Shown: positions 5,239 to 53,592 of the stretch, one piece after another | Position numbering within the stretch: the stretch's first letter is position 1 | Layout: the number at the start of each line of letters is the position of its first letter | Assembly: GCA_021767705.1 (NCBI GenBank) | Contig: JAASSU010000001.1 | Location: forward strand, 7,558-71,557 | Direction of reading: 5' to 3' | DNA: 64,000 nucleotides | From: Bacteroidota bacterium | Lineage (GTDB): Bacteria; Bacteroidota; Bacteroidia; Bacteroidales; JAIPAH01 | The notes under the pieces: generated by a model | The model's input: the letters and a program-made list of their open reading frames with translations, nothing else | Database searches by the model: none | What the model was told of the DNA's origin: nothing | Translations under genes and position numbers: made by a program

Positions 5239-8121
5239 ATGAAAAATTTACCTGAGGAATATCAATATCTGTATCAGAATCTCTCAAAAGTTATCGATGA
5301 AGAGAGGATGCTAACCAGCCCTTTGCAAACACTTGCATTCGGTACGGATGCCAGCTTTTATCGCTTGATTCCTAAAATTGTCATAAAAGCTAAGAATGCT
5401 GAAGAAGTTTCGGCAATTCTTAAAGAGTGTAATACCCTTTCCATACCTGTTACTTTCCGTGCGGCAGGCACAAGCCTCTCCGGACAGGCCATTAGCGACT
5501 CCGTTCTGATTGTTGCAGGTAACGACTGGAAACAGCATCACATACTTGATGACGGAGAGAAAATCCGCTTGCAACCCGGCGTAATTGGTGCGCATGCCAA
5601 CCAGGTGCTGAAGCCCTACAGAAAAAAAATAGGCCCCGATCCGGCCTCCATAAATGCAGCCATGATTGGGGGGATTGCTGCCAACAATGCCAGCGGCATG
5701 TGCTGCGGAACAGCGGAAAATTCATACAAGACCGTCGACAGCATGAAAGTGATTATGCAGGACGGAACCTTGCTGGACACTGGTAACGCCGACAGCCGAA
5801 AAGCATTTGAACAATCGCACGGTCAGTTGCTGAAAGACCTTCAATACCTTTCAGAGTCTGTGAGGGACAACAAAGAGCTTTCAGAGTTGATTTCCCACAA
5901 GTTTAAGATGAAAAATACGACGGGCTACAGCCTGAATGCTTTAGTGGACTTTTCAGACCCTTTCGATATTCTGGAACATTTAATGATTGGCTCGGAAGGA
6001 ACACTGGGATTTATTGCTGAAATTACCTACAAAACCGTAGTAGATCATCAATTTAAAGCAAGCTCGCTGATGACTTTCCCGGATATCGAGAAAGCCTGCA
6101 ATGCTGTGTCGCGATTAAAATCAGAGCCGGTGGCTGCGGTCGAGCTTATCGACAGGGCCGGGCTTCGCTCTATGGAGGATGCCGATGGGGTGCCGCCTTA
6201 CCTCAAAGAACTGTCTGACGGGGCATCATCAATCCTGGTGGAAACCACTTCTAACGACCGCGAAAAGCTGGCTCTGCAAATGAGGCAGATTAAAAAATCC
6301 ATCGTGGATATTCCAACGGAAATACCTATCACATTTACCGAAAAACCCGAAGAATATGCCAAACTTTGGAAGATACGTAAAGGGCTTTTCCCCTCGGTAG
6401 GTGCTATGCGCGAAGCCGGAACAACCGTGATTATCGAAGATGTGGCATTCCCTGTGCCACGCCTGGCCGAAGCTACGCTTGCGTTACAGGAGCTTTTCAG
6501 AAAGTATGAATATAATGAAGCGGTGATTTTTGGTCATGCCCTTGAAGGAAACCTGCATTTTGTCTTTAATCAGGATTTTAATGATAACCAGGAACTGGAA
6601 CGTTATAAGGCCTTTATGGATGAGCTGGCGATTATGGTGACGGAAAAATTTGATGGCGCCCTGAAAGCTGAGCACGGAACAGGCCGAAACATGGCCCCTT
6701 TTGTGGAGCAGGAATGGGGAACGCTGGCCTATGAGGTGATGAAGCAGGTAAAAAAGATCTTCGATGCTCAGGACCTGCTTAACCCGGGAGTGATTTTAAA
6801 TAATGATCCGGAGATTCATACCAAGAATCTAAAGCCAATGCCCGCAGCACATGAGTTGATCGATAAGTGCACGGAATGCGGGTTCTGTGAACCGGTATGT
6901 GTTTCGCACGATTTAACCATGTCGCCCCGACAACGAATTACTGTTTTCCGCGAAATGGAAAGATTAAAACAAAGTGGCCAGGAACCTCACATGCTGGCAT
7001 CACTGATGAAAGACTATGATTACAAGGCACTTCAAACATGTGCAACAGACGGATTGTGCGCGCTGAGTTGTCCGGTGAAAATCGATACCGGGAAACTGGT
7101 AAAGCATTTGCGTCATGAATCGCATACAAAGAATGACAAAAAAATCGCTGCATATCTTGCCCCGCGAATGAGCAAGGTGGGATCGGCGGCACGTATCGGT
7201 TTGAACATAGTGAGTATGGCGCACTCGGTATTGGGGACTAAACTGATGGGCGGCACTGCCGGAGCTGTAAGGAAGCTTTCGGGTAACCGTATTCCTCAGT
7301 GGAACGCCTATTTCCCGAAAGGGGCTCCTAAAGTGAAGCCAGAGCCTGTTAATAAAAACAATCCCGACAAGGTAGTCTATTTCCCGTCATGCATTAACCA
7401 GTCGATGGGGATTTCTAAAGATTATGATGAAAAAGTTTCACTGACAAATAAGGTAAAGAACCTACTGAAAAAAGCGGGTTTTGAGGTTCTTTATCCTGAA
7501 AATTTGTCAAATCTTTGCTGCGGCATGGCATACAGCAGTAAAGGGTTTAAAGAGGAAGGAAAGCGCAAGTCGGATGAGCTGGAAGCAGCGTTGTATGAGG
7601 CCAGCGAGCAAGGGAAATATCCGATCCTTTGTGATATGAGCCCTTGCCTGTTTACGATGAAAGAAAACATGGAGCCCAACCTGAAGCTTTACGAGCCGGT
7701 GGAATTTGCCATGGAATACCTTGTGCCGAGGCTTGAGTTTAAACCGGTGGATGAAACGGTGAGTGTATTTGCTGTTTGTAGTGCCAAAAAAATGGGTGTG
7801 GATCAGAAACTGGTTGACCTGGCAAAAATGTGTGCTACAAAAGTGGTGCAACCCAACACAAACTGTTGCGGATTTGCCGGAGACCGCGGGTTTACACATC
7901 CCGAACTCAACGCACATGGACTCAGAGAACTGAAGGCCCAGACACCAACACAGGTGAAGCACGGTTATGCCACCAGCCGCACCTGCGAAATAGGACTGTC
8001 GCGCCACAGCGACATTTCCTACAAATCGATACTCTATCTGGTAGATAAAGTAACCGAACCACGAAAAAGTAAAAAAACCAAACGGACATCAATAAAAGCA
8101 AGAAAAACAGAAAAAGTATGA
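5239..8121 (+). CDS. FAD-binding and Fe-S-binding D-lactate dehydrogenase (Dld-II type: FAD-PCMH oxidase + 4Fe-4S + two CCG-type Cys-rich domains)
   Basis: N-terminal FAD-binding oxidase domain (TFRAAGTSLSGQA, EGTLGFI). Ferredoxin-type motif CTECGFCEPVC plus CATDGLCALSCP. C-terminal CCG motifs (NLCCGMA, TNCCGFAGD). I prefer ATG 5239 (MKNLPEEY) because the track start 5185 overlaps lctP. Confidence 0.8.
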   Translation: MKNLPEEYQYLYQNLSKVIDEERMLTSPLQTLAFGTDASFYRLIPKIVIKAKNAEEVSAILKECNTLSIPVTFRAAGTSLSGQAISDSVLIVAGNDWKQHHILDDGEKIRLQPGVIGAHANQVLKPYRKKIGPDPASINAAMIGGIAANNASGMCCGTAENSYKTVDSMKVIMQDGTLLDTGNADSRKAFEQSHGQLLKDLQYLSESVRDNKELSELISHKFKMKNTTGYSLNALVDFSDPFDILEHLMIGSEGTLGFIAEITYKTVVDHQFKASSLMTFPDIEKACNAVSRLKSEPVAAVELIDRAGLRSMEDADGVPPYLKELSDGASSILVETTSNDREKLALQMRQIKKSIVDIPTEIPITFTEKPEEYAKLWKIRKGLFPSVGAMREAGTTVIIEDVAFPVPRLAEATLALQELFRKYEYNEAVIFGHALEGNLHFVFNQDFNDNQELERYKAFMDELAIMVTEKFDGALKAEHGTGRNMAPFVEQEWGTLAYEVMKQVKKIFDAQDLLNPGVILNNDPEIHTKNLKPMPAAHELIDKCTECGFCEPVCVSHDLTMSPRQRITVFREMERLKQSGQEPHMLASLMKDYDYKALQTCATDGLCALSCPVKIDTGKLVKHLRHESHTKNDKKIAAYLAPRMSKVGSAARIGLNIVSMAHSVLGTKLMGGTAGAVRKLSGNRIPQWNAYFPKGAPKVKPEPVNKNNPDKVVYFPSCINQSMGISKDYDEKVSLTNKVKNLLKKAGFEVLYPENLSNLCCGMAYSSKGFKEEGKRKSDELEAALYEASEQGKYPILCDMSPCLFTMKENMEPNLKLYEPVEFAMEYLVPRLEFKPVDETVSVFAVCSAKKMGVDQKLVDLAKMCATKVVQPNTNCCGFAGDRGFTHPELNAHGLRELKAQTPTQVKHGYATSRTCEIGLSRHSDISYKSILYLVDKVTEPRKSKKTKRTSIKARKTEKV

Positions 8122-9350
8122 ACTACAGACTGATAACCATAGTACTTTTAGCTTTACCTGTATGGCTCATTGCCCAGGAAGAAGGGGATTACAATGTAAG
8201 CATCAGCGGATTTGTGTCGTCGGAGAATATTTTTGATACGCGCCAAACGGTGACCGCACGCGAGGGCGATGTATTGCTCTATCCCGCACCGGTGGTGGAA
8301 GACCTTAGCGGGAACGATATCAACGGGCAATCAAGCTTTAACATGTTCAGCATCCACAGCCGCTTGCGGACAAGGGTTTCAGGCCCCCAAATGTTTGGGG
8401 CGGAATCGAGCGCGCTGGTCGAGATGGATTTTGTAGGAACATCAAACGCTGTGATGAGTATGATGCGCCTGCGCCATGCAATCATTAAACTCAACTGGGA
8501 GAACAGCTCACTGATGGCCGGACAGTATTGGCACCCGTTGTTTGTTACCGGCAGCTACCCTGAGGTATCGAGCTGGGGCGGAGGACTGCCCTACGCCATC
8601 CTTTCCAGGAATCCGCAAATCAGGTTTAAGCACCATTTCGGCCAACACTTCTTTGGCAGTATCACCGCACTGGTGCAACGCGATTTTGCCAGCCCGGGCC
8701 CAAAGGGAGCTTCATCCGAATACCTCAGGAATTCTTCAAAACCAGAACTTGATCTGCATCTCGAATATCATAAAAATGGCTGGAAACTTGGAACCGTGCT
8801 GGGCTATAAAGAGCTGAGGCCACGGCTTCAAAATGAAAATGGCCAGGTGGTTGACGAAACATTGGGCTCGGCCTTTGGAAGTCTGTATGTTCGTAAAGAC
8901 TGGAACAACTTCACTGCCAAAGTAAAAGCTGTTTACGGTGAAAACCTGTATAATTTCCTGATGCTCGGAGGCTATGCTTCTTACCAGGGGGTGAATGCCG
9001 GCGAGCTGGAGTATTCAAATTATGAAACAGGCAACTTATGGACTGAACTCATTTACAACAAGAATCAATTTATTTATTCGCTGTTTGCGGGATATACCCA
9101 AAATATGGGCGTGAACAGAGATGCAAACGAAGGGATGGACCTGGTTTACAGATACGCCCGCGGAACAGACATCGCCTATGCCTACCGTGTGGCTCCGAGG
9201 TTGGGATACAAAGTGAATAAATTTCTGATAATGGGCGAGGTGCTCCGTGATGTGGCCGCCTATGGCGAAGCGCAGCCCGACGGGGAGGTGTTAAATACCG
9301 AAGAGTCGACGAATATCCGAATCCAGCTTCATCTTAAATATAGTTTTTGA
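8118..9350 (+). CDS. Putative outer-membrane beta-barrel/porin-like protein co-transcribed with lctP-dld
   Basis: ATGA overlap with the dld stop. Signal peptide is MNYRLITIVLLALPVWLIAQ. It shows an alternating amphipathic pattern and a C-terminal aromatic residue (LKYSF). No family is recognised. Confidence 0.55.
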   Translation: MNYRLITIVLLALPVWLIAQEEGDYNVSISGFVSSENIFDTRQTVTAREGDVLLYPAPVVEDLSGNDINGQSSFNMFSIHSRLRTRVSGPQMFGAESSALVEMDFVGTSNAVMSMMRLRHAIIKLNWENSSLMAGQYWHPLFVTGSYPEVSSWGGGLPYAILSRNPQIRFKHHFGQHFFGSITALVQRDFASPGPKGASSEYLRNSSKPELDLHLEYHKNGWKLGTVLGYKELRPRLQNENGQVVDETLGSAFGSLYVRKDWNNFTAKVKAVYGENLYNFLMLGGYASYQGVNAGELEYSNYETGNLWTELIYNKNQFIYSLFAGYTQNMGVNRDANEGMDLVYRYARGTDIAYAYRVAPRLGYKVNKFLIMGEVLRDVAAYGEAQPDGEVLNTEESTNIRIQLHLKYSF

Positions 9351-9388
9351 TTCACTGGATTTTTTTAAATTCATGTTGATTGTTGAAA

Positions 9389-9417
9389 AGGCACCTTGTC
9401 ATGGGTGCCTTTTTTTA
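9389..9417 (+). terminator. Rho-independent terminator after the lactate operon
   Basis: AGGCACC-loop-GGTGCCT stem followed by TTTTTTT. Confidence 0.7.
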
Positions 9418-9492
9418 TGGAATAAACTCAACTGTCGTTTTCCCGACAGAATTCCCTTGCCCCCCGGTGTAGTTTTGCTTCAAAAGTAAATC

Positions 9493-9945
9493 ATGATAAA
9501 AGACAGCATTGCAGTTTCCGTATTTCTGTTCACCATGTATACACTCGCCTCTTTAGCAGGTGTAAACATAGCTTCGGGCGAAATTCTTTGCGGATGGCTG
9601 TTGAAACAGAAAAATTTATACAGCTTGCTCTCTTTTGTATTCATTTATTCTTTCACAGGATTTTTGTTGGGAAAATACATCCTGAACTTATGGTCTGGCG
9701 ACATCCTTATTAAAATATTCCTTTTCGGGATAAGCTTTTTTCTTCTGGATATTGCAGCAGCACTTTTTATTTTCAGACATGCCGGCATTTCTCTTTTCAT
9801 CGGGTTTTTGGAAAAACTCATGTTTGGGGCACTTATCCTTGTTTTCCTCTCCATTAAAGAAAAGGAGAGTCAAGTTATAGTCAGGAATGTAAAAGTTTCC
9901 GGACAGAAAATCTTAAAGTGTCAGCAAGCAGACAGATTGACTTAG
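9493..9945 (+). CDS. Hypothetical small membrane protein (about 4 TM)
   Basis: The ORF has a regular hydrophobic-segment pattern. No motif is recognised. Confidence 0.35.
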   Translation: MIKDSIAVSVFLFTMYTLASLAGVNIASGEILCGWLLKQKNLYSLLSFVFIYSFTGFLLGKYILNLWSGDILIKIFLFGISFFLLDIAAALFIFRHAGISLFIGFLEKLMFGALILVFLSIKEKESQVIVRNVKVSGQKILKCQQADRLT

Positions 9946-9955
9946 CAAAGCACAC

Positions 9956-9963
9956 TAATTTTG
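9956..9963 (+). promoter_or_regulatory. Bacteroidota-type -7 box (TAnnTTTG) for the precursor gene
   Basis: TAATTTTG lies 50 nt upstream of the ATG at 10013 and after the stop of the preceding ORF. Confidence 0.4.
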
Positions 9964-10012
9964 AACCATTATAAATAAAGAAAATAATTTTAATCATTTA
10001 AAACTAAATTTT

Positions 10013-10447
10013 ATGAATTCTAAAAAATTAAAAAAATCAGCAGCCATTGTAACCGGAACTATCATTGCCGGTTCATTTTCAGTCAACGCACAAGCCGGTG
10101 ACGCCAATCTTTTCGAATATGACAACCTGGGCTCAGGTGCAGAGTTACGCAGTGAACTTCTGCAAAAGAACAGCGAGCGCTACAAAACCTTCGAAATGAA
10201 GTGTGGTGGCAAAAAAGCCGAAGCTTCAAAGAAAGACAAATCGTCTGAAGCTAAATGTGGTGAGGGCAAGTGTGGTGCCGACAAAAAAGCCGATGCCAAG
10301 AAAAAAGGTAAAGAAGCAAAAAGCACTGAAGCCAAGTGCGGCGAAGGCAAATGTGGTGGCGGAGATAAAAAAGCCGACAGCACCAAGAAGGAAGAAAGTA
10401 AAGCTGCACAGTCGAAGTGTGGACAAGGAAAATGTGGCGTTGAATAG
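10013..10447 (+). CDS. Secreted Lys-rich Cys-repeat peptide, candidate RiPP precursor (resembles HvfA/oxazolin-type EGKCG-repeat metallophore precursors)
   Basis: Sec-type leader is MNSKKLKKSAAIVTGTIIAGSFSVNAQA. The mature part contains MKCGG, EAKCGEGKCG (twice) and QSKCGQGKCG, giving 7 Cys, all in KCG context, separated by K/A/E/D-rich spacers. It sits immediately upstream of the DUF692-DUF2063-DoxX genes. Confidence 0.75.
   Translation: MNSKKLKKSAAIVTGTIIAGSFSVNAQAGDANLFEYDNLGSGAELRSELLQKNSERYKTFEMKCGGKKAEASKKDKSSEAKCGEGKCGADKKADAKKKGKEAKSTEAKCGEGKCGGGDKKADSTKKEESKAAQSKCGQGKCGVE
10247..10438 (+). repeat. Three in-frame copies of a 30-nt (E/Q)(A/S)KCG(E/Q)GKCG unit inside the precursor gene
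   Basis: The units lie at 10247-10276, 10328-10357 and 10409-10438. Units 1 and 2 encode the identical peptide EAKCGEGKCG but differ at 6 of 30 nt, and all six differences are at third codon positions. Confidence 0.9.
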
Positions 10448-10465
10448 TGAGGGTGAATCTAAGGC

Positions 10466-10497
10466 AGGGCGTCCGTCGCCCTCGCCTTTCTTTTCTT
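10466..10497 (+). terminator. Hairpin plus T-rich tract between the precursor and maturase genes (possible partial terminator or attenuator)
   Basis: AGGGCG (10466-10471), a TCCGT loop and CGCCCT (10477-10482), followed by CGCCTTTCTTTTCTT. Confidence 0.45.
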
Positions 10498-10523
10498 GAT
10501 TACAAAACCAAAGCTGAAACATT

Positions 10524-11360
10524 ATGAAAACAAAAATTGGCATAGGAGCACGAAGGGAATTTATTGATGAACTGATTGAACAGCAAGACCTGCATCCGGA
10601 TTTTGTGGAGCTGGCTCCCGAAAACTGGATGAAAATGGGTGGTTACTGGGGCAAGAAACTCCGCCAGGTCACTGAAAGATATCCCGTAACCTGCCATGGC
10701 CTTTCGCTTTCGTTAGGAAGCCCCGAGGAGCTGGATTACGCTTTTGTAAAAGACCTGAAAAAGTTCCTCGAAGAACATGATGTACAGATTTTCTCTGAGC
10801 ACTTGAGCTACACCAAAACACACAATGCCCATGTTTACGACTTGCTGCCTATCCCGTTCAGGGAAGATGCGGTGAAACACGTGGCGCAACGTATCCGCGA
10901 AGCACAGGAGCTGCTTGGAAGGCGCATCGCCATCGAAAATGTTTCCTATTACACGGAGGTAGACGCTGAAATGGACGAGGCTACCTTTATCAGAAGCATC
11001 GTGGAAGAGGCCGATTGTGATTTGCTCCTCGATGTAAATAACGTCTACGTCAACGCCTTTAACCATAACTACGATGCTAAAGAGCATATCAAAAATCTAC
11101 CGCTCGATCGCGTGGCATACATTCACATGGCCGGACATGAGCAGGTAGAACCCGATCTGATTATCGACACCCATGGCGAGGCCATCATCGATCCGGTTTA
11201 TGAACTCTTTCACTATACGGTAAACCGAATGAAAGAAGTGCCCGTGCTACTTGAAAGGGATTTTAATTTTCCGGAATTAACCGAACTGCAGCAGGAGATG
11301 AACAACCTGCGCAGCATCACCGAAAAAGCCTGGAGGAACAATTATGCAGTGGCTAAGTAA
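10524..11360 (+). CDS. DUF692 / MNIO-family (MbnB-like multinuclear non-heme iron oxidase) RiPP maturase (HvfB/BufB-like)
   Basis: 278 aa TIM-barrel-type protein with DUF692 hallmark stretches: CHGLSLSLGS, FSEHLSY, IAIENVSYY, LLLDVNNVYVNA, YIHMAGH, IIDTHG and VLLERD. Confidence 0.85.
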   Translation: MKTKIGIGARREFIDELIEQQDLHPDFVELAPENWMKMGGYWGKKLRQVTERYPVTCHGLSLSLGSPEELDYAFVKDLKKFLEEHDVQIFSEHLSYTKTHNAHVYDLLPIPFREDAVKHVAQRIREAQELLGRRIAIENVSYYTEVDAEMDEATFIRSIVEEADCDLLLDVNNVYVNAFNHNYDAKEHIKNLPLDRVAYIHMAGHEQVEPDLIIDTHGEAIIDPVYELFHYTVNRMKEVPVLLERDFNFPELTELQQEMNNLRSITEKAWRNNYAVAK

Positions 11361-12108
11361 CCATACTGAAGATCTTCAGAGTCAGTTTGCGGAATTTTGC
11401 CGCACCGGAAAACCGGTGTCGCTTCCGGGGACCAACCCGCAACGCATGGAACACTACCGCAGACTTTCATTCAGCGTCATTTATAATTCGCTGGAACAGG
11501 CATACCCTATCACACAGCAAGTACTAACCGATAGCGAGTGGACAGACCTGGTGGATGGTTTCTATGCCAACCACGATAATACTACACCATTGTTGTGGCA
11601 AATGCCACATGGCTTTTATGAGTATGTTGCCAATTCCGATCTTCAAATCAAAGAAGATTACCCTTTTCTTCCTGAGCTGCTTTACTTCGAGTGGCTCGAA
11701 ATTGAAGTGCATACCATGGAAGATATTCCTTACCCGGAGGGTTTTGTAAAGTCTTCAGACTTCACCACAGAAAGTGCTGTGGCAGTTAACCCTGAGCACC
11801 GGCTTGTGCAACTGACCTATCCGCTGCATCTGAAGGCCGTGGAAGAAGCCATTAAGGAGCCGGGCAACTATTACGTTTTAATTTACCGCCATCCCGAAAG
11901 CGGTAATGTAAAGTTTATGAACCTCTCTGTTTTGTTTGCTTTTGCATTCAGCCTTTTTGCCGAAAAGCAGCTAAACATTTACGAGGCAGCTAAAGAAATT
12001 GAAAATCAATTTGGACTTGGGGAAGAGAAGCAGGTGTTAAAACACCTCCATAGCTTCCTGAATAAGATGTCTGAATTAGAGGCAGTATCAGGAATAATCA
12101 AAAAATAA
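11344..12108 (+). CDS. DUF2063-family partner protein of MNIO enzymes (HvfC/BufC-like)
   Basis: 17-nt overlap with the DUF692 gene. The N-terminal pattern LQSQFAEFCR...RMEHYRRL...YPITQQVL...W..LV..F...TPLLWQMP..FYEYV is typical of DUF2063. Confidence 0.7.
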   Translation: MQWLSNHTEDLQSQFAEFCRTGKPVSLPGTNPQRMEHYRRLSFSVIYNSLEQAYPITQQVLTDSEWTDLVDGFYANHDNTTPLLWQMPHGFYEYVANSDLQIKEDYPFLPELLYFEWLEIEVHTMEDIPYPEGFVKSSDFTTESAVAVNPEHRLVQLTYPLHLKAVEEAIKEPGNYYVLIYRHPESGNVKFMNLSVLFAFAFSLFAEKQLNIYEAAKEIENQFGLGEEKQVLKHLHSFLNKMSELEAVSGIIKK

Positions 12109-12114
12109 AATATC

Positions 12115-12549
12115 ATGTTAGAGAAAATTAAAAAAATCACACAGAAATTCGATTCATTACAAGATTTATCGTTGTTGTTTTTAAGGCTTATTTTGGCCTA
12201 TGGCTTTTACACGCCGGCCGTCAACAAATGGAAAAATATGGAAGGCATCGCACAATGGTTCGAAAGTATGAACTACCCGTTGCCACTTCTTAATGCCTAC
12301 CTTGCCGGCACCACCGAAGCCGCTGGGGTATTGTTGCTTTTGCTGGGACTGGGCACGCGTCTGATTTCCATCCCGTTAATGTTTACAATGCTCGTGGCCA
12401 TCTTCACTGTGCACATCGGCAATGGTTTTGCCGCAGGTGATAACGGCTTCGAGATCCCGCTCTATTATTTTCTGATGTTGTTGGTGCTGATGGCTTATGG
12501 GTCTGGGAAATACAGCATTGATTTCATCACAAGGAAGATGCGTGAATAA
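12115..12549 (+). CDS. DoxX-family membrane protein (HvfX-like)
   Basis: 144 aa with 4 TM. DoxX-like stretch is LLFLRLILAYGF...AGTTEAAGVLLLLLGLGTRLISIPLMFTMLVAIFTVH. It starts 6 nt after the DUF2063 gene stop. Confidence 0.8.
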   Translation: MLEKIKKITQKFDSLQDLSLLFLRLILAYGFYTPAVNKWKNMEGIAQWFESMNYPLPLLNAYLAGTTEAAGVLLLLLGLGTRLISIPLMFTMLVAIFTVHIGNGFAAGDNGFEIPLYYFLMLLVLMAYGSGKYSIDFITRKMRE

Positions 12550-12589: not shown

Positions 12590-12622
12590 AAAAGCTTGCA
12601 TGGATATACCATGCAAGCTTTT
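12590..12622. terminator. Bidirectional terminator between the convergent DoxX and Crp genes
   Basis: Perfect 14-bp stem of AAAAGCTTGCATGG, an ATATA loop and CCATGCAAGCTTTT, flanked by T/A runs on both strands. Confidence 0.8.
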
Positions 12623-12625
12623 TGT

Positions 12626-13306
12626 TTAAAGTTTTTCCGGTTCATGAATCAAAATTCTTTTCCGGTCATAATCAAGCAGGCCTTCTTTCTCAAGTTGATT
12701 CATAATGGTTGTAACAGTCTGACGTGTGGTGGCCGAAAGGTTGGCTAAATCCTGGTGTGTCAGCTTGAGTTCAATCACCACCTCATCGCCCACCGGGCGG
12801 CCATGCTCTTCGGCCAAATCTTTCAATACCTGCTTTACACGATCGGGAGCTTTCTTAAACCATAAAGCTTCCAGACGTGAACGCACTTTCTTCAATCGGA
12901 AACCCACCAGCTTAGTTACATTGAGGTTAAGCTGCGGATTCTGTTCCATGAAACGTTCAAACTCCTTTACGCTGATGCTGCAAACAACGGCATCCTCAGT
13001 AGCTTCGGCCACCTGCGCCTGCACTTTATCACCCATGATAGCCTGCTCGCCAAACAGCTCGCCTGGCCCCAGAATAGCATGGGTCAGCTCTTTTCCCTCT
13101 TCAGAGTAAGAAGAGATTTTTACTTTTCCTTCTTTCAGGAAATAGATAGAATGCGACGAGTCGCCCGGAAGATAAATGCTTTCCGACTGTCGCGTATGTT
13201 TCATGGTGGACTTGTCGTTCATCTCCATCATCTCCTTCTTCGACATCGACTTCAGGATATTGAAGTTTTCAAAGTACCAAAGTTTTGTTTTCGACGATTC
13301 AGCCAT
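12626..13306 (-). CDS. Crp/Fnr-family transcriptional regulator (cNMP-binding domain + C-terminal HTH, no Cys cluster)
   Basis: Beta-roll is YFLKEGKVKISSYSEEGKELTHAILGPGELFGE. HTH is LTHQDLANLSATTRQTVTTIMNQLEKEG. Confidence 0.85.
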   Translation of the reverse strand: MAESSKTKLWYFENFNILKSMSKKEMMEMNDKSTMKHTRQSESIYLPGDSSHSIYFLKEGKVKISSYSEEGKELTHAILGPGELFGEQAIMGDKVQAQVAEATEDAVVCSISVKEFERFMEQNPQLNLNVTKLVGFRLKKVRSRLEALWFKKAPDRVKQVLKDLAEEHGRPVGDEVVIELKLTHQDLANLSATTRQTVTTIMNQLEKEGLLDYDRKRILIHEPEKL

Positions 13307-29022: not shown

Positions 29023-32000
29023 ATGAATATGGGACTCCTCAATAAACTTCTCTATTTTAGCAATGATGTAAAAAAAACGTCAGACAAACACATCGTTACA
29101 ACAAATGAAAACCGCAACTGGGAAAGTTTTTATCGTGATCGCTGGCAACACGATAAAATAGTGCGTTCCACTCATGGGGTCAACTGCACTGGCTCCTGTT
29201 CATGGAAAATTTTTGTGAAAAACGGCCTGGTAACCTGGGAAATACAGCAGACGGACTATCCTGAGACCCGTCCAGATATGCCCAACCATGAGCCAAGAGG
29301 CTGTCCACGAGGAGCAAGCTATTCATGGTACCTATATAGTGCCAATCGTGTAAAGCACCCAATGATTAGAGCTACACTGGTAAAAGCTTATCGCGAAGCA
29401 CGGAAAAAAACCGGTGACCCGGTGGAAGCCTGGCAACAAGTTATGGAGGACCAGGAGGTTTCCAAAAAATATAAGGCTGAAAGAGGGTTAGGAGGTTTTA
29501 TCCGCATCGACTGGGACGAGGTCAATGAAATCATCGCAGCTTCCAACATCTACACCATCAAAAAATATGGCCCCGACCGCATTGCCGGCTTCACCCCCAT
29601 ACCGGCCATGTCAATGGTCAGCTATGCTTCAGGAACACGCTATCTCAGCCTGCTGGGAGGAACGGTGCTGAGTTTCTACGATTTTTATTGTGATCTTCCC
29701 CCGGCCTCACCCCAAACCTGGGGCGAACAAACCGACGTCCCGGAAAGCGCCGATTGGTACAATTCTTCTTTCCTGATGCTGTGGGGATCGAATGTGCCGC
29801 TGACCCGCACACCGGATGCCCCGTTTTACACCCAGGTGCGCTACAAAGGGACCAAAACCATTAACATTTCACCTGACTACAACGATGCCGCCAAATTCTC
29901 CGATTTATGGATGAAACCCAAACAAGGCACGGATGCAGCCCTGGGCATGGCCATGGGGCATGTCATCCTGAAAGAATACTTTCTGGACAAGAAAACAGCC
30001 TATTTTGACGATTACGTAAAACGATATAGCGATCTGCCTTTTTTAGTGAAGATAGAAAAGGACAACGGACGGTTTGTTCCCGGGCAGGTGGTTCGGGCCA
30101 ATGATTTTGCAAAGGATTTGGATGTTAAAACCAGTCCGGATTGGAAACCTGTCCTGTTCGATGAAAATTCGTCGGATTTCGCTGTGCCCAACGGAACCAT
30201 CGGTTCGAGGTGGGATAAAAGCCAGCAATGGAACCTGGAGCTGAAGGACGTCCGCAGCGGTAATGAAATCAGCCCAAAGCTCTCGCTGATTGATAATCAT
30301 GACGAAACTGCGGAGGTTGCCTTCCCCTATTTCGGCGGGGAAACTTACAAGCACAGTCATTTTAACTCTACGGAAGATGAAGATATCATCTATCGAAAAA
30401 TCCCTGTTAAAAAAGCCGAAGGTAAGGAAGGAGAGTTTTTTTACTGTACGGTTTTCGACTTGCTGGTGGCCAATTACGGGCTTGATCGCGGATTGGAAGA
30501 TGAGAGCGCGGCGCAAAGTTATGACGATGAAAAACCTTACACCCCGGCATGGCAGGAAAAAATTACCGGAGTACCACGCGATCAGGCCATAACTACTGCC
30601 CATCAGTTTGCCGATACGGCTGCAAAAACTAAAGGTAAGTCCATGATTATCATCGGAGCCGGAGTGAATCACTGGTTTCATACCGATATGATTTACCGGA
30701 GCGCTATCAACATGCTGGTTCTCTGCGGATGCGTCGGACAATCCGGTGGAGGCTGGGCGCATTATGTAGGGCAGGAAAAAGTGCGACCACAAACCGGCTG
30801 GCTGCCCCTGGCCTTTGCCCTCGACTGGAATCGCCCGCCCAGACAGATGAACACCACATCGTTCTTCTACATGCACACTGACCAATGGCGGTACGAAAAA
30901 GTGGGGCTTTCGGAACTCATCTCGCCGCTTGTAGATAAAAAAGAGTGGGAAAGCAAGTCGATGATCGATTGCAATGTAAAAGCCGAACGAATGGGCTGGC
31001 TGCCCTCTTCGCCTCAATTAAGCGAGAATCCGTTAAACCTTGCCAAAGAAGCGGAGAAAGAAGGAAAAGAACCATCGGTTTATATCACAGGAAAGCTGAA
31101 GAGTAGAGAGATCTCTATTGCCAGTGAAGATCCGGATAACCCAAAGAATTTTCCACGTAATCTTTTTGTCTGGCGATCCAACCTGCTAGGCTCCAGTGCT
31201 AAGGGCATGGAATATTTCATGCGGCACCTTGTCGGAACACAAAACAGTGTCATGGGGCCGGATTTAAAAGAAAGCGGAGAGCAAATCCCGCAGGAGGTAA
31301 AATGGCATGAGAAGGCGCCGGAAGGGAAATTGGACCTGCTGGTAACGCTCGATTTCCGTATGTCAACAACGGCCCTGCATTCTGATATTGTGCTTCCAGC
31401 GGCGTCCTGGTATGAGAAAAATGACTTGAGCACCTCGGATATGCACCCGTTTATCCACCCTTTTGCCAGCGCGGTGGATCCCGTTTGGGGCTCGCGTACC
31501 GACTGGGATATCTACAAAGGACTGGCTAAGAAATTTTCGGAAATAGTCCCCGGACATCTCGGTAAAGAGAAAGACATTGTGATGCTGCCCCTGCAGCATG
31601 ATTCACCCATGGAAATTTCCGAAACGGTCACGGCTGAAGACTGGAAGGAAACCGGCAAGGAGTTGAAGCCAGGCAAAAACATGTCGAAAATTGTTCCCGT
31701 AGAGCGGAACTACCCCGAGACCTACAACCGCTTCACGTCGCTGGGCCCTTTAATGGATAAGGCCGGCAACGGCGCCAAGGGAATCAGCTGGAATACGGAA
31801 GAGGAAGTGGAACTGCTTAAAAAACTTAATAAAACATCAGAAAATGATGGGGAATCTTATGGCAGGCCACGGATTGAAACCGATATAAATGCAGCAGAAG
31901 TAATTCTTTCACTGGCTCCCGAAACTAACGGACACGTAGCCAATAAAGCGTGGCAAGCACTGGAGCAATCAACGGGCCTCAAACACACCCATTTAGTGGA

Positions 32001-32772
32001 AGGCCGGGCTGAAGAAAAAATCCGCTATAAAGACCTGGTTTCTCAACCAAGGAAAATCATCACCTCCCCCATTTGGAGCGGTATTGATTCGGAAGAGGTC
32101 TCGTACAATGCCGGGTATACCAATGTGCATGAGTTGATCCCGTGGCGAACACTCACAGGACGCCAAACACTTTACCAGGATCACCCATGGATGCAAGCAT
32201 TTGGCGAAAGCATGGTGTGTTACAAACCACCAATCAATACCAAATCGATAAATCACATTCTGGATAAAGTGAATAAAGATGACAACTACTTGATAATAAA
32301 TATGATGACACCGCATAACAAATGGACAATCCACTCTTCTTGGTCAGATAACCTGATGATGCTAACGCTTGGACGGGGTGGCCCGGTGGTTTGGATGAGC
32401 GAGAGGGATGCTGCCAAAATTAATCTTCAAGACAATGATTGGGTAGAGGTCTTCAACAGCAACGGTGCTTCGGCAGCTCGTTTGATTGTTTCACAACGCA
32501 TCCCGGAAGGTGCACTGATAATGTACCACAACCAGGAACGAACGGTGAATATGCCCATCAACCAGGTGACTGGCAACCGCGGCGGCGTGCACAATTCGGT
32601 GGAACGCCTGAGCCTCAAACCCACCCATATGATTGGTGGGTATGCCCAACTGAGCTATGGATTCAATTATTACGGAACAATCGGTTCCAACAGGGATGAA
32701 TTCGTTGTGGTGCAAAAAATGGATAAAGTGGAATGGAAAGATGACCCCGTTGACGAACCTGAAAAAAAATAA
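29023..32772 (+). CDS. narG: Respiratory nitrate reductase alpha subunit (copy 1)
   Basis: 1249 aa. FS0 motif is [13 protein letters not shown]. The Mo-ligand region is YDFYCDLPPASPQTWGEQTDVPESADWYNS. No twin-arginine leader is present. Confidence 0.97.
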   Translation: MNMGLLNKLLYFSNDVKKTSDKHIVTTNENRNWESFYRDRWQHDKIVRSTHGVNCTGSCSWKIFVKNGLVTWEIQQTDYPETRPDMPNHEPRGCPRGASYSWYLYSANRVKHPMIRATLVKAYREARKKTGDPVEAWQQVMEDQEVSKKYKAERGLGGFIRIDWDEVNEIIAASNIYTIKKYGPDRIAGFTPIPAMSMVSYASGTRYLSLLGGTVLSFYDFYCDLPPASPQTWGEQTDVPESADWYNSSFLMLWGSNVPLTRTPDAPFYTQVRYKGTKTINISPDYNDAAKFSDLWMKPKQGTDAALGMAMGHVILKEYFLDKKTAYFDDYVKRYSDLPFLVKIEKDNGRFVPGQVVRANDFAKDLDVKTSPDWKPVLFDENSSDFAVPNGTIGSRWDKSQQWNLELKDVRSGNEISPKLSLIDNHDETAEVAFPYFGGETYKHSHFNSTEDEDIIYRKIPVKKAEGKEGEFFYCTVFDLLVANYGLDRGLEDESAAQSYDDEKPYTPAWQEKITGVPRDQAITTAHQFADTAAKTKGKSMIIIGAGVNHWFHTDMIYRSAINMLVLCGCVGQSGGGWAHYVGQEKVRPQTGWLPLAFALDWNRPPRQMNTTSFFYMHTDQWRYEKVGLSELISPLVDKKEWESKSMIDCNVKAERMGWLPSSPQLSENPLNLAKEAEKEGKEPSVYITGKLKSREISIASEDPDNPKNFPRNLFVWRSNLLGSSAKGMEYFMRHLVGTQNSVMGPDLKESGEQIPQEVKWHEKAPEGKLDLLVTLDFRMSTTALHSDIVLPAASWYEKNDLSTSDMHPFIHPFASAVDPVWGSRTDWDIYKGLAKKFSEIVPGHLGKEKDIVMLPLQHDSPMEISETVTAEDWKETGKELKPGKNMSKIVPVERNYPETYNRFTSLGPLMDKAGNGAKGISWNTEEEVELLKKLNKTSENDGESYGRPRIETDINAAEVILSLAPETNGHVANKAWQALEQSTGLKHTHLVEGRAEEKIRYKDLVSQPRKIITSPIWSGIDSEEVSYNAGYTNVHELIPWRTLTGRQTLYQDHPWMQAFGESMVCYKPPINTKSINHILDKVNKDDNYLIINMMTPHNKWTIHSSWSDNLMMLTLGRGGPVVWMSERDAAKINLQDNDWVEVFNSNGASAARLIVSQRIPEGALIMYHNQERTVNMPINQVTGNRGGVHNSVERLSLKPTHMIGGYAQLSYGFNYYGTIGSNRDEFVVVQKMDKVEWKDDPVDEPEKK

Positions 32773-32775
32773 GCT

Positions 32776-34260
32776 ATGCAAATACGCGCACAAATAGGAA
32801 TGGTCCTCAACCTCGATAAATGCATCGGGTGCCACACCTGCTCGGTGACCTGCAAGAATGTGTGGACTTCCCGAAAAGGCATGGAATATGCCTGGTTTAA
32901 CAATGTGGAGACCAAACCCGGCAGGGGTTATCCCGATGACTGGGAAAACCAGGAGCACTGGCAAGGTGGCTGGGGACTCAAGAAAAACGAACTCCGGCCA
33001 AAACTGGGGAATAAAAAAGGGGTAATGAAAAACATTTTTGCCAATCCCTACATGCCAAAGCTTAATGATTATTACGAACCGTTCACGTTCAACTACTCCA
33101 TTCTGCATAAAAGCTCGAAGTTTAAAACGCCGCCATCGGCAAAGCCTTATTCAATGATTACCGGAAAGCCTATGGAAAAAATTGAGAAAGGTCCGAATTG
33201 GGAGGACAACCTGGGTGGCAGCTACGACAAACGCAGCACCGAACAAAACTTTGAGGAAGTCCAGAAAGAGATTTACGGCAAGTTTGAAAACTCCTTCATG
33301 ATGTACCTTCCCCGTTTGTGTGAACACTGCATCAACCCCACCTGTGTTGCAGCTTGCCCCTCAGGTGCTATTTATAAGCGTGAGGAAGACGGCATTGTTC
33401 TGATAGACCAGGAACGTTGCCGCGGCTGGCGGCAATGCGTGAGCGCCTGTCCGTACAAGAAAATCTATTTTAACTGGAAAACCCGCAAATCGGAAAAATG
33501 CACGATGTGCTATCCGAAGATTGAAGCAGGTGAACCAACTATTTGCTCGGAATCTTGTGTGGGCAGGATTCGCTACATCGGCGTGATGCTTTATGATGCG
33601 GAAAAAATAAAAGAAGCGGCCTCAAAAGAAGACGAGCATGACCTCTACCAGGCCCACCTGGATGTTTTTCTCGATCCAAATGATCCTGAAATTGCCAAAG
33701 AAGCCGAAAAGCAGGGTATTCCTCATAACTTTATAGAAGCAGCGCAAGCTTCACCGGTCTACAAAATGGCCATGGAATGGAAAGTTGCTTTTCCTCTTCA
33801 TCCCGAATACCGCACCTTACCTATGGTTTGGTATGTTCCCAGTCTTTCACCCATTCAATCGGCTGCTGATAGTGGTAAGCTCGGGCATAACGGAATCCTC
33901 CCGGATGTGGATTCGCTGCGGATTCCGAATAAATACATGGCTAACATGTTTACAGCCGGGGATGAAGAACCCATAAAGCTTGCGCTGAAAAAAATGCTGG
34001 CCATGCGGGCCTACATGCGAACCAAAACCGTTGAACAGGAGGCCAATGAAGAAACCCTCAAAGGACTCGACCTAACCGTGAAACAAGTCGAAGAGATGTA
34101 CCGCTACATGGCCATTGGCGATTACAAAGACCGTTTTGTGATACCTACCTCGCATAAAGAATATGCGGAAGATGTATTCGGAGATAAAGCTGCATGTGGC
34201 TTTACCGACGGGGATGATTGCGGAACCGGTAAATTTAAAAACCTATTCGGAGGATTTTAG
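32776..34260 (+). CDS. narH: Respiratory nitrate reductase beta subunit (copy 1)
   Basis: Four Fe-S motifs: CIGCHTCSVTCK, CEHCINPTCVAACP, CRGWRQCVSACPY and CTMCYPKIEAGEPTICSESCVGRIRY. Confidence 0.97.
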   Translation: MQIRAQIGMVLNLDKCIGCHTCSVTCKNVWTSRKGMEYAWFNNVETKPGRGYPDDWENQEHWQGGWGLKKNELRPKLGNKKGVMKNIFANPYMPKLNDYYEPFTFNYSILHKSSKFKTPPSAKPYSMITGKPMEKIEKGPNWEDNLGGSYDKRSTEQNFEEVQKEIYGKFENSFMMYLPRLCEHCINPTCVAACPSGAIYKREEDGIVLIDQERCRGWRQCVSACPYKKIYFNWKTRKSEKCTMCYPKIEAGEPTICSESCVGRIRYIGVMLYDAEKIKEAASKEDEHDLYQAHLDVFLDPNDPEIAKEAEKQGIPHNFIEAAQASPVYKMAMEWKVAFPLHPEYRTLPMVWYVPSLSPIQSAADSGKLGHNGILPDVDSLRIPNKYMANMFTAGDEEPIKLALKKMLAMRAYMRTKTVEQEANEETLKGLDLTVKQVEEMYRYMAIGDYKDRFVIPTSHKEYAEDVFGDKAACGFTDGDDCGTGKFKNLFGGF

Positions 34261-34262
34261 TG

Positions 34263-34886
34263 ATGATAAAAACCTACAAAATATTATCCCTGCTACTCTC
34301 TTATCCGACCCGGGAACTTCATGAGTTTCTCGGAGAAGCCGGTGGTGAGCTCAGAGATGAAAACCTGTTGCCGGAGGAAGCCATTAAGGGAATCGAAAAG
34401 TTTGTCGAATATTTTTCCAGCCCTGAACTCACCGACTGGCAGGCCCATTACGTTCAGCTGTTCGATTATTCGAGGGCCGCTTCCCTGCACCTCTTCGAAC
34501 ATGTACAGGGCGATTCCAAAGACCGTGGACAAGCCATGGTGGACTTAATCAACTTTTACAGGGAGAACGGCTTGGATATCACCACCAACGAACTACCCGA
34601 TCATCTGCCGGTGTTCCTCGAATTTCTATCCACCCTTGAACCGGAAAAAGCCTCTGAATTGCTTTCCGAACCAATCAATGTGATCGCAAGGATATTCGAG
34701 AAACTGCATGAAAAAGACAACATGTATCAGCATGTACTTTCGGCCATTCTCCGGCTGTCGGCGAAACATCCGGAAAAAGAGACGGTCGATAAAATCATCC
34801 GGAGCCAGAAGCCTTTGAACCTGGACGAGGAGTATGAAGAAAAGCCGGTGACCTTCGGCGGGAACAATTGCTCAAGTTGTAACTAA
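34263..34886 (+). CDS. narJ: Nitrate reductase Mo-cofactor assembly chaperone (copy 1)
   Basis: NarJ position and size, with the motif ELPDHLPVFLEFLS. Confidence 0.85.
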   Translation: MIKTYKILSLLLSYPTRELHEFLGEAGGELRDENLLPEEAIKGIEKFVEYFSSPELTDWQAHYVQLFDYSRAASLHLFEHVQGDSKDRGQAMVDLINFYRENGLDITTNELPDHLPVFLEFLSTLEPEKASELLSEPINVIARIFEKLHEKDNMYQHVLSAILRLSAKHPEKETVDKIIRSQKPLNLDEEYEEKPVTFGGNNCSSCN

Positions 34887-34898
34887 AAAAATTGAACT

Positions 34899-35591
34899 AT
34901 GGAATATTTTATTAATAACCTGCTGTTCACCTATTTTCCGCACATCGCTATGGCGGTATTTTGGTTTGGTTTAATCACGAGGTTGGTGAAAACCAACAAG
35001 ACCATTCAGGCCCAGTCCACCCAGTTCTTTTCCGACCGGAAAATCCGGCTGGGCAGTAACCTGTTTCATGTGGGGATGATCATGGTTTTCCTGGGTCATT
35101 TCACCGGGTTGTTCACCCCCGAAAGTCTCTACCACATCGTCATCTCCACCGAAACGAAACGCATTATCGCGATTACTCTGGGTAGCATTTTCGGCACAAT
35201 GACCTTTGTGGGGATGATCATTCTGATTACCCGCAGGATCAAAGACGACCGGATACGCGTAAACAGCGGTTTCCAGGATTACTTCCTGCTCTTCCTTTTG
35301 CTGGCGGAAGTAGGGTTAGGATTAGCTTCCGTCTCAACCACCGCCACTGCATCGGTTGAGCATTACGCTTCCCTGGGTGTATGGGCACAGAAGGTAATTA
35401 CCTTCCAGCCCGATGCAGGTGCCATCATCGCCGGCCACAACCTGATTTACAAACTCCACATCGGAGTAGGCTTGTTCATATTCATCATCTTCCCCTACAC
35501 CAAGCTCATGCATATGCTTGTCATCCCTGTGGGGTATTTTTTCAGGTCGGGGTATCAATTGGTTAGAAAAGGATTACAGTGGAAATTTTAA
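34899..35591 (+). CDS. narI: Respiratory nitrate reductase gamma subunit (diheme b, copy 1)
   Basis: 230 aa with 5 TM and conserved His-containing helices (FHVGMIMVFLGH, KLHIGV..., MHMLVIP). Confidence 0.9.
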   Translation: MEYFINNLLFTYFPHIAMAVFWFGLITRLVKTNKTIQAQSTQFFSDRKIRLGSNLFHVGMIMVFLGHFTGLFTPESLYHIVISTETKRIIAITLGSIFGTMTFVGMIILITRRIKDDRIRVNSGFQDYFLLFLLLAEVGLGLASVSTTATASVEHYASLGVWAQKVITFQPDAGAIIAGHNLIYKLHIGVGLFIFIIFPYTKLMHMLVIPVGYFFRSGYQLVRKGLQWKF

Positions 35592-35602
35592 AAAATAGAG
35601 TT

Positions 35603-46101: not shown

Positions 46102-46115
46102 AAAGGAATAAAACT

Positions 46116-47666: not shown

Positions 47667-47688
47667 ACCCAATCAAAACAAAGTAACA

Positions 47689-48366: not shown

Positions 48367-48377
48367 ACCAGTTAGTC

Positions 48378-52311: not shown

Positions 52312-52345
52312 TCATTTGATAGCGAAAGAAAATCATTGCTGAATA

Positions 52346-52789: not shown

Positions 52790-52823
52790 AATCTTGATTT
52801 CAGGTTTTCTTCCGCAAAATTAA

Positions 52824-53552: not shown

Positions 53553-53565
53553 AATTTATTATTTT

Positions 53566-53589
53566 AATAAAGATATTAAGGTCTTTATT
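53566..53589. promoter_or_regulatory. 24-bp palindromic operator candidate in the ytfE promoter
   Basis: AATAAAGAT-ATTAAG-GTCTTTATT, with 9-bp arms matching at 8 of 9 positions. It starts 4 nt downstream (minus strand) of the -7 box. A near-identical copy lies at 55614-55637. Confidence 0.55.
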
Positions 53590-53592
53590 GCG

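Follow-up and report, generated by a model that had tools for sequence, protein, structure and literature searches.

The four genes at positions 10013–12549 of the DNA analysed here very probably constitute a captophorin cluster of hvfABCX type within the oxazolin/fontiphorin (Lys-Cys, EGKCG) branch, belonging to an uncultured Bacteroidales and working by the mechanism proposed below. Captophorins, as the class is currently named, number more than 20,000 clusters. Because the family has already been described, named and automatically annotated, the present cluster is a further member of a known family and not a new system. In the following, the window denotes the whole stretch of 64,000 nucleotides that was analysed. 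The ORF list places a precursor, an MNIO (DUF692) enzyme, a DUF2063 partner and a DoxX protein on the same strand, and the following features are assigned.

9956–9963, + strand: TAATTTTG, which fits the -7 promoter consensus of Bacteroidota and lies 50 nt 5′ of the precursor ATG; a weak candidate.
10013–10447, + strand: hvfA-type precursor, 144 aa (ORF; NCBIfam NF050137; homologues).
10109–10162, + strand: conserved N-terminal module of the precursor, LFEYDNLGSGAELRSELL, aa 33–50 (precursor alignment).
10461–10497, + strand: hairpin (10461–10488) and U-run (10489–10497), a candidate partial terminator or attenuator between hvfA and hvfB.
10524–11360, + strand: hvfB, MNIO (DUF692) maturase, 278 aa (Pfam PF05114; NCBIfam NF003818).
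11344–12108, + strand: hvfC, DUF2063/NGO1945_C partner (PME1, RiPP recognition element), 254 aa (Pfam PF09836, PF22106).
12115–12549, + strand: hvfX, DoxX-family membrane protein, 144 aa (Pfam PF07681; NCBIfam NF050144).
12590–12622, unstranded: bidirectional intrinsic terminator, a 14-bp perfect palindrome with an A-run and a U-run at its flanks.
12626–13306, - strand: Crp/Fnr-family regulator, 226 aa (Pfam cNMP_binding and HTH_Crp_2), a convergent neighbour.

The precursor corresponds to the 144-residue Sec-signal protein of the original prediction, with its seven cysteines (64, 82, 87, 109, 114, 136 and 141) each lying within KCG. A lone KCG at C64 precedes three KCG(E/Q)GKCG pairs (C82/87, C109/114 and C136/141) placed 27 aa apart, and seven KCG were never reached when the mature region, which holds 26 Lys among 117 residues, was shuffled 200,000 times. 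The Sec signal, read from the sequence, spans approximately residues 1–27, with MNSKKLKKS, AAIVTGTIIAGSFSV and NAQA/GD as its n-, h- and c-regions; the Lys-rich n-region, the 15-aa hydrophobic h-region and the AQA/G signal peptidase I motif align with the signal of FonA. By the same reading the precursor has neither a lipobox Cys nor, ending as it does in ...KCGVE, room for a type IX secretion C-terminal domain, so the periplasm is the default expected location; where a periplasmic or secreted peptide had been envisaged, these absences favour the first part and speak against the second. Its repeat domain scores 29.5 bits with NF050137 (KCGExKCG_twice; cutoff 19.5), but the HvfA equivalog NF050188 is not reached (33.9 bits, cutoff 95, the match being limited to residues 50–115), and no Pfam model, DUF2282 included, matches the precursor. 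Homologues number 1033, and alignments extend to FonA (5e-16) and, with its three repeats, to Haemophilus influenzae HvfA (4e-15). Lys-rich spacers and this repeat layout are the normal architecture of the precursor clade, and FonA likewise has seven modified Cys; the poly-Lys scaffold with 3.5 repeats is thus not the special feature it had been taken for.

The hvfB product matches PF05114 with 343 bits (1.2e-102) and the NCBIfam HvfB model NF003818 with 399 bits (cutoff 360), and its closest solved structure is PDB entry 3BWW (3e-65). All seven family motifs listed in the original prediction were found (CHGLS, SEHLS, IENVS, LLDVNN, HMAGH, DTHG and LERD). The nine iron ligands are likewise all kept, namely H58, H93, E138, D170, N173, H201, D215, H217 and E244, which correspond in that order to H54, H90, E133, D163, N166, H192, D208, H210 and E239 of MbnB; among them are the three site-3 ligands that proved essential in HvfB. 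With FonB the enzyme shares 49% identity, and R10, R11, D246 and F247 align with FonB R15, R16, D249 and F250, so that the catalytic base Asp and the Arg-Arg/Phe determinants of MNIOs acting on EGKCG (Lys-Cys) substrates are present. It stays below the cutoff of the BufB model (287 bits, cutoff 310) and far below that of MbnB (63.5 bits, cutoff 325).

Curated NCBIfam models cover all four roles (HvfA, HvfB, HvfC and HvfX); cutoffs are exceeded by the MNIO, by the DoxX protein and by the repeat domain of the precursor. The hvfX product scores 129.8 bits with the HvfX model NF050144 (cutoff 80) and 75 bits with PF07681. The hvfC product is recognized by PF09836 (59 bits, cutoff 27.2) and PF22106 (41.2 bits, cutoff 27) and resembles FonC in its N-terminal domain only (30% identity); it just misses the HvfC equivalog NF050145 (127.4 bits, cutoff 142) despite a full-length match (residues 11–248). 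The profile searches with Pfam and NCBIfam thus bear out the assignment to a DUF692/DUF2063/DoxX cluster of the HvfA/oxazolin type. Because the precursor fails the HvfA equivalog and HvfC falls just below its cutoff, the sequences mark the system as a paralogous or divergent branch and not as the H. influenzae orthologue.

The gene order is shared by related loci in Bacteroidota, Ignavibacteriota, Chlorobiota and Calditrichota, where a precursor homologue lies directly 5′ of the MNIO gene in A-B-C order in 74 of 80 cases and a DUF2063 homologue follows hvfB in all 80. A DoxX gene is found downstream in 46 of the 80, making it a frequent but not universal cluster feature. The characterized members in the literature searched (oxazolin, fontiphorin, gonophorin, MmrA, NedA and the bufferins) are all from Pseudomonadota, in agreement with what had been supposed. 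The accompanying view of Bacteroidota as uncharted could not be upheld: RefSeq and UniRef already label Bacteroidota proteins as 'HvfA family ... RiPP metallophore', NF050137 (E <= 0.001) recognizes 71 of 74 homologues of the window precursor, and 173 such clusters are catalogued in the phylum (Gadgil et al., 2026, Table S3, PMC13097082).

Among known systems, the fontiphorin cluster fonABC of the gammaproteobacterium Fontimonas thermophila, a captophorin of the Lys-Cys/EGKCG group (Gadgil et al., 2026, PMC13097082), shares the DUF2063 partner and, in FonB, the same iron ligands and R-R, D and F residues. FonA and the window precursor align end to end and have in common the Sec-type signal, F-x4-LGxG, the KCGEGKCG groups, the Lys/Ala/Asp-rich spacers and seven Cys; however, FonA is shorter (108 versus 144 aa), has spacers of about 10 rather than about 20 aa, groups its cysteines 2+3+2 rather than 1+2+2+2 and lacks the ...AE(L/V)RSxLL helix part of the N-terminal module. 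The oxazolin cluster hvfXABC of nontypeable H. influenzae (Manley et al., 2024, PMC11252979; revised 2026) comprises the same four protein families. Its HvfB, to which 3BWW is 72% identical, has the iron ligand set of the window enzyme, and HvfA also carries three KCGEGKCG-type pairs close to the C-terminus. HvfA differs in its length of 94–95 aa, its 17-aa repeats and its N-terminal region, where a CVGDKC disulfide is present and the LGSGAE(L/V)R module is missing. According to the published gene table, the clusters of H. influenzae and N. gonorrhoeae begin with the DoxX gene, whereas the present one ends with it. The order precursor, MNIO, DUF2063, DoxX is that of the bufferins (BufABC and DoxX), in which a Sec signal likewise replaces the leader peptide and which combine 5-thiooxazole chemistry with copper buffering in the periplasm (Leprevost et al., 2024, PMC11626156). 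Bufferin precursors are of the DUF2282 or 6/12-Cys type without EGKCG repeats, and a Buf1/Buf2 identity was rejected on the missing DUF2282 hit and the sub-cutoff BufB score. Methanobactin (MbnABC) also employs an MNIO with the same iron ligands, which oxidizes ribosomal-peptide Cys to copper-binding heterocycles. Its oxazolone/thioamide product, leader-peptide precursor and MbnC partner set it apart, and this identity was rejected on the MbnB score together with the DUF2063 partner and Sec-signal precursor of the window cluster.

The hvfB and hvfC genes overlap by the predicted 17 nt (11344–11360) and hvfX follows after a gap of 6 nt; read from the sequence, the four genes would form one transcription unit. 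Between hvfA and hvfB lies a hairpin that folds at -17.9 kcal/mol alone, the whole 81-nt spacer giving -23.8 kcal/mol (z = -2.36). Of 74 loci, 56 have a similar hairpin 3′ of the stop codon of the precursor gene, compared with 52 of 370 shuffled controls (14%). This spacer hairpin was absent from the original prediction. The proposed strong bidirectional terminator was confirmed; it separates hvfX from the convergent crp gene (-26.3 kcal/mol, z = -4.47; 0 of 200 shuffles folded equally well). The cluster had also been credited with a -7 box of its own; TAATTTTG is present, but TAnnTTTG shows no enrichment across the window (48 observed versus 62 expected), and only seven of 74 related loci have a -7 motif 5′ of the precursor gene, the same rate as after shuffling. 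This box was the only sequence-level point of the original prediction that proved weak.

Just after the signal peptide, the precursors carry a near-invariant module with the consensus (L/I)(F/L)xYxx(L/M)G(S/T)GxE(V/L)R(S/T)x(L/I)(L/I). In the precursor alignment G40 is conserved at 100%, R46 at 99%, G42 at 93% and Y36 at 91%, and G40, G42 and R46 are invariant in A1. A profile built on the module retrieved 101 cluster representatives, 81 of them previously unseen; at least two KCG were present in 66 of these and one Cys site in eight. AF2 predicts a helix at residues 42–56 of the precursor with a pLDDT of about 63–67. The module is missing from H. influenzae HvfA and partial in FonA, and no discussion of LFxYxxLGSGAE(L/V)R was found in the literature searched on the class. 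Since the N-terminal region is not required for modification of H. influenzae HvfA, the module may have a separate, undescribed role. We tentatively suggest, while regarding it as rather doubtful, that the Bacteroidota, Ignavibacteriota, Chlorobiota and Calditrichota precursors form a distinct sub-class defined by this module and its separate role, possibly docking to the divergent HvfC, delivery to the DoxX protein or the binding of a periplasmic partner. The closest sister species have orphan hvfBCX loci without a precursor gene, a hint that the enzymes can become uncoupled from the precursor.

The chemistry expected of the cluster follows a recent revision. The HvfA modification, which the original prediction gave as oxazolone/thioamide, was reassigned to 5-thiooxazole in 2026, both by its original authors and by a second, independent group, on the basis of alkylation, HMBC NMR and comparison with methanobactin; FonB correspondingly puts seven 5-thiooxazoles on FonA. 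In the mechanism that we propose, the hairpin after the precursor gene probably halts some transcripts, leaving more precursor than enzyme. The enzyme requires O2. By homology, Cys at the KCG sites would each be oxidized by four electrons (-4 Da) to 5-thiooxazole, the six paired sites being the likeliest targets. The lone C64 is a less certain one and may stay a free thiol, because a FonA fragment with one EGKCG repeat stayed unmodified in vitro. The Sec signal would direct the peptide to the periplasm, with signal peptidase I cleaving after NAQA (Ala27). The largely disordered Lys-rich mature peptide would then bind Cu(I) through thiooxazole N/S donor pairs, at about 3–4 Cu per chain, and would act in the cell envelope as a buffer of copper and oxidative stress, while the DoxX membrane protein may serve as a redox or copper-handling accessory. 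For the window peptide both the conversion of Cys to 5-thiooxazole and the Cu(I)-binding product are inferred from the characterized members, as these properties are established for Pseudomonadota only.

Whether sequestration or acquisition is served is unsettled even among characterized members, and a chalkophore role was offered as one possibility for oxazolin (Manley et al., PMC11252979). A released copper-acquisition chalkophore in place of a periplasmic copper/oxidant buffer nevertheless appears unlikely here. The window does code for respiratory enzymes and for NnrS, described as a haem- and copper-containing membrane protein, but a released peptide is poorly matched by a precursor with the C-terminus and signal described above and by a cluster in which no TonB-dependent receptor or exporter was found. 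Related 5-thiooxazole systems respond to excess copper, gold or oxidants and not to copper starvation, and copper-loaded fontiphorin aggregates, which fits sequestration.

A main role in protection against oxidative or nitrosative stress, with the thiooxazole mercaptans and DoxX as an envelope redox buffer and copper secondary, is judged very unlikely, even though the H. influenzae hvf operon is tied to oxidative and hypochlorite stress and a DoxX homologue together with SseA alleviates oxidative stress (Manley et al., PMC11252979). The surroundings of the cluster in the window, with genes for lactate use, nitrate respiration and NO stress, suit such a role, comprising two NarGH-like operons, qNor, NnrS, ScdA/RIC, a hemerythrin-PAS protein and the Crp/Fnr-family regulator; no copper-resistance gene or ECF sigma/anti-sigma pair was found near the cluster, which counts against the copper-binding role preferred here. 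These surroundings are, however, not conserved, the crp gene adjoining the cluster in only five of 80 loci, all from close relatives, and no Crp/FNR-type box was found upstream of hvfA. The regulator has a single Cys and therefore no FNR-type Fe-S motif; it is a neighbour and not a demonstrated member of the system. Moreover, all characterized members bind Cu(I), which argues against a secondary place for copper. Finally, methanobactin-like oxazolone/thioamide pairs formed by the same cluster, the first (2024) assignment for H. influenzae HvfA and one that resembles 5-thiooxazole in mass change (-4 Da) and UV features, are highly improbable given the reassignment of oxazolin and the preference of the window enzyme for the HvfB over the MbnB model.

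The hvfABCX-type cluster described here adds an environmental, non-proteobacterial example to one of the most populous RiPP classes, opening no new mechanism and answering no long-standing question. Across the FCB group (Bacteroidota, Ignavibacteriota, Chlorobiota and Calditrichota), for whose phyla the published surveys offer counts only, it bears out a wide distribution of the hvfABCX logic. The 74 aligned precursors define a clade-specific N-terminal module and show that the hairpin 3′ of the precursor gene is conserved in position; both could guide work on substrate recognition and on the precursor-to-enzyme ratio. A Bacteroidales member would be a reasonable first non-proteobacterial system for reconstitution.

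The four open reading frames of the original prediction were borne out by ORF calling, all on the forward strand, with a 17-nt overlap between the second and third genes and a 6-nt gap between the third and fourth:

10013–10447, forward strand, precursor (hvfA-type; 144-aa ORF)
10461–10497, forward strand, hairpin and U-run 3′ of the precursor stop codon (by folding)
10524–11360, forward strand, DUF692 protein, the enzyme (hvfB; 278-aa ORF)
11344–12108, forward strand, DUF2063 protein, the partner (hvfC; 254-aa ORF)
12115–12549, forward strand, DoxX protein (hvfX; 144-aa ORF)

Pfam families were found for three of the four proteins, namely PF05114 (MbnB_TglH_ChrH; E = 1e-102) for the enzyme, PF09836 and PF22106 (DUF2063/NGO1945_C) for the partner and PF07681 (DoxX) for the DoxX protein. 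Dedicated NCBIfam models are already in place for all four roles. The enzyme passes the HvfB model NF003818 (399 bits, cutoff 360), the DoxX protein the HvfX model NF050144 (129.8 bits, cutoff 80) and the repeat domain of the precursor the KCGExKCG_twice model NF050137 (29.5 bits, cutoff 19.5); the partner falls just below the cutoff of the HvfC model NF050145 (127.4 bits, cutoff 142) and the precursor fails the strict HvfA equivalog NF050188 (33.9 bits, cutoff 95). These Pfam and NCBIfam matches uphold the identification of the cluster made earlier. Judged by the pattern of passes and failures, it belongs to the HvfA-type family without being a strict ortholog of the Haemophilus influenzae system. 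The precomputed gene table of the window's own locus record labels PF09836 and PF22106 as 'HvfC_N' and 'HvfC_C', a further sign that the family is already established in databases.

All of the enzyme motifs listed in the original prediction were found in the protein sequence. The nine iron ligands of MbnB (H54, H90, E133, D163, N166, H192, D208, H210 and E239; PMC9060507) map to H58, H93, E138, D170, N173, H201, D215, H217 and E244 of the window enzyme; the alignment thus answers the reservation that this DUF692 homologue might lack them. Among the conserved ligands are the three residues of site 3; mutating these inactivates HvfB, the oxazolin enzyme of H. influenzae. FonB, the fontiphorin enzyme of Fontimonas thermophila, is 49% identical to the window enzyme; its catalytic Asp249 corresponds to D246, and Arg15, Arg16 and Phe250, positions that are a hallmark of MNIOs acting on Lys-Cys (EGKCG) substrates, are kept as R10, R11 and F247.

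Each of the seven precursor cysteines (64, 82, 87, 109, 114, 136 and 141) lies within KCG, and shuffling the mature region 200,000 times never reproduced seven KCG. No DNA-level tandem repeats were found in the precursor gene, so that only the protein retains the repetition. The fontiphorin precursor FonA aligns with the window precursor from end to end, through the signal peptide, an F-x4-LGxG motif, the KCGEGKCG groups and KKADAK-type spacers, and the three repeats of H. influenzae HvfA align with it as well. The Cys groups are 27 aa apart in the window precursor (grouped 1+2+2+2), 17 aa apart in HvfA [2 (disulfide) + 2+2+2] and 19–24 aa apart in FonA (2+3+2). Precursors of the clade carry from 3 to 9 Cys, and a lone KCG site comes first in about half of them (36 of 75), so the Lys-rich spacers and 3.5 repeats stressed in the original prediction are ordinary within the clade. 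A FonA fragment with a single repeat was unmodified in vitro (Gadgil et al., 2026; PMC13097082), so Cys64, the lone site here, may stay unmodified. AlphaFold2, run on the precursor with 74 sequences, gave a mean pLDDT of 50.5 and a pTM of 0.16, too low for a fold search, with a low-confidence helix at residues 42–56 and disorder elsewhere; such a model fits a disordered peptide. The β-helix model published for members with 17-residue repeats (PMC12452194) was not reproduced by AlphaFold2 on this precursor. Variant precursors in two Flavobacteriales/Cryomorphaceae loci (L023, 1798–2223; L026, 2061–2489) keep the LGSGAELRSELL module and have only three Cys, in KCGEGSCG and one (S/T)CG site, with a Glu/Lys/Arg-rich end (ERDAAREKAMKRDAEKAK...) instead of KCG repeats.

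A metagenome-assembled genome of the Bacteroidales, L001, matches the window most closely, its enzyme being 99% identical, and the best 80 related loci are nearly all from Bacteroidota, Ignavibacteriota, Chlorobiota or Calditrichota. In all 80 a DUF2063 gene follows the enzyme gene, 74 have a KCG-rich signal-peptide ORF immediately upstream of it and 46 have DoxX downstream. The cultivable relatives Prolixibacter bellariivorans (L007) and Labilibacter marinus (L024) also possess the cluster. A large protein collection yielded 1033 precursor homologues, some of which, such as those of Ferruginibacter albus and Salibacter, already bear the name 'HvfA family oxazolone/thioamide-modified RiPP metallophore'; NF050137 matches 71 of 74 aligned homologues at E ≤ 0.001. 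The next-closest loci, L002 and L003 (enzyme 87–88% identical), come from separate genomes listed as different species. Both have hvfB and hvfC and lack the precursor gene at the place corresponding to window 9350–10524 (5751–6001 in L002, 5750–6001 in L003); a gene for a 410-aa signal-peptide protein lies immediately upstream of hvfB, and L002 also has hvfX and the Crp/Fnr-family gene crp. No KCG-rich ORF was found anywhere in the stretches retrieved for the two loci, so the maturases either are orphans or have their precursor gene at another site.

The oxazolin of H. influenzae was first described in 2024 (PMC11252979), and a 2025 survey put the EGKCG family at about 2,000 proteins, 'mostly Pseudomonadota' (PMC12452194). 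Gadgil et al. (2026; PMC13097082) characterized fontiphorin, with seven 5-thiooxazoles, and gonophorin, reassigned the oxazolin heterocycle as 5-thiooxazole and introduced the name captophorins for the class, which numbers more than 20,000 clusters. The original authors of oxazolin confirmed the reassignment, so that the oxazolone/thioamide chemistry first proposed for the window peptide is superseded, and showed a mixed-valent diiron cofactor to be the active form. The claimed novelty of a Bacteroidota member likewise fails because both setting and scaffold are already catalogued and automatically annotated: Table S3 of Gadgil et al. (2026) counts 173 Bacteroidota clusters, of which 6 belong to Bacteroidia, and RiPP metallophore names have been assigned.

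The hairpin between precursor and enzyme genes has a folding energy of −17.9 kcal/mol by itself, and the entire 81-nt spacer −23.8 kcal/mol (z = −2.36). Of 74 loci, 56 have a similar hairpin just after the precursor gene, versus 52 of 370 shuffled controls; its sequence varies among the examples compared, which suggests a candidate partial terminator that would raise the precursor-to-enzyme ratio; this hairpin is not discussed in the literature found on EGKCG clusters. The terminator predicted downstream was confirmed at 12590–12622, where doxX and crp converge, as a palindrome of 14 bp without mismatch (−26.3 kcal/mol, z = −4.47). The '−7 box' TAATTTTG is indeed present at 9956–9963; as evidence of the cluster's own promoter it is weak and was set aside, since the motif is not enriched within the window and occurs upstream of homologous precursor genes in 7 of 74 loci, the shuffled rate. 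Regulation by the adjoining crp was also rejected: TTGATNNNNATCAA at up to two mismatches gave 60 matches against 62 expected, with none upstream of the precursor gene, the regulator has a single Cys and so no FNR-type cluster, and it adjoins the cluster in only 5 of 80 related loci. It was dropped as a component of the system.

The neighbourhood is conserved only among the closest relatives. Upstream lie genes for a histidine kinase, a σ54 activator, a lactate permease, a fused FAD/FeS lactate-dehydrogenase-like protein and two proteins without a family. The first, the 410-aa signal-peptide protein (8118–9350), has no Pfam or NCBIfam match, and its gene shares 4 nt with the end of the lactate-dehydrogenase-like gene, stop codon included. 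L002–L004 encode relatives of about 60% identity; in L002 and L003 the gene lies directly upstream of hvfB, whereas L004 has it some 3.5 kb upstream of hvfA. The second, a 150-aa multi-pass membrane protein (9493–9945) encoded between the 410-aa protein and the precursor, has a close relative (85%) in L001 only. On the downstream side, the convergent crp is followed by genes for TetR regulators, a VIT1 transporter and an MMPL/LolA-like system. A scan of neighbouring ORFs, reaching about 20 kb in the 3′ direction, turned up no copper-resistance genes (copper ATPase, multicopper oxidase or Cus system) and no ECF sigma factor or sigma/anti-sigma pair. Farther along are two NarGH-like molybdoenzyme operons (29023–36574 and 42475–49046); in the first, the large subunit carries the N-terminal domain of respiratory nitrate reductase, and in the second the large subunit (1208 aa) has no match to this domain and may be a different NarG-clade enzyme. 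NO-stress genes follow at 50944–57966, comprising NnrS, the ScdA/RIC iron-centre repair protein and a hemerythrin-PAS protein on the reverse strand and a quinol-type NO reductase (qNor; NorB with a cytochrome c-like domain) on the forward strand. An FNR-like box, TTGCTGAATATCAA, with one mismatch lies just upstream of nnrS (52336–52349), such boxes being at chance frequency window-wide. After the NO reductase gene comes a row of menaquinone biosynthesis genes (58641–63217) for a MenF-like chorismate-binding enzyme, a MenD-like TPP enzyme, a MenB-like enoyl-CoA hydratase and a MenA-like UbiA prenyltransferase. Searches for tRNAs and Rfam families across the whole window gave no matches.

After the signal peptide, the precursors share a module, (L/I)(F/L)xYxx(L/M)G(S/T)G(A/S)(E/Q)(V/L)R(S/T)x(L/I)(L/I) at window residues 33–50, in which conservation reaches 100% at Gly40, 99% at Arg46, 93% at Gly42 and 91% at Tyr36. 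An exhaustive profile search across 1.84 billion cluster representatives returned 101 proteins, all except one 52–189 aa long, with the module about 30 residues from the N-terminus in most; a separate 772-aa match was spurious, being a repeat protein. Among 81 previously unseen proteins, two or more KCG occur in 66 and a single Cys site in 8; the other 7, which are six short fragments (52–75 aa) and one apparently frameshifted sequence, have none. The module is thus dedicated to this precursor type. It is not discussed in the literature found on EGKCG precursors; H. influenzae HvfA deprived of its signal and the N-terminal 20 residues is still modified (PMC11252979). Our literature search found no paper characterizing a non-proteobacterial EGKCG member, and the remaining interest of the cluster lies in its position outside Pseudomonadota, to which EGKCG experiments have been confined, and in its clade-specific N-terminal module.
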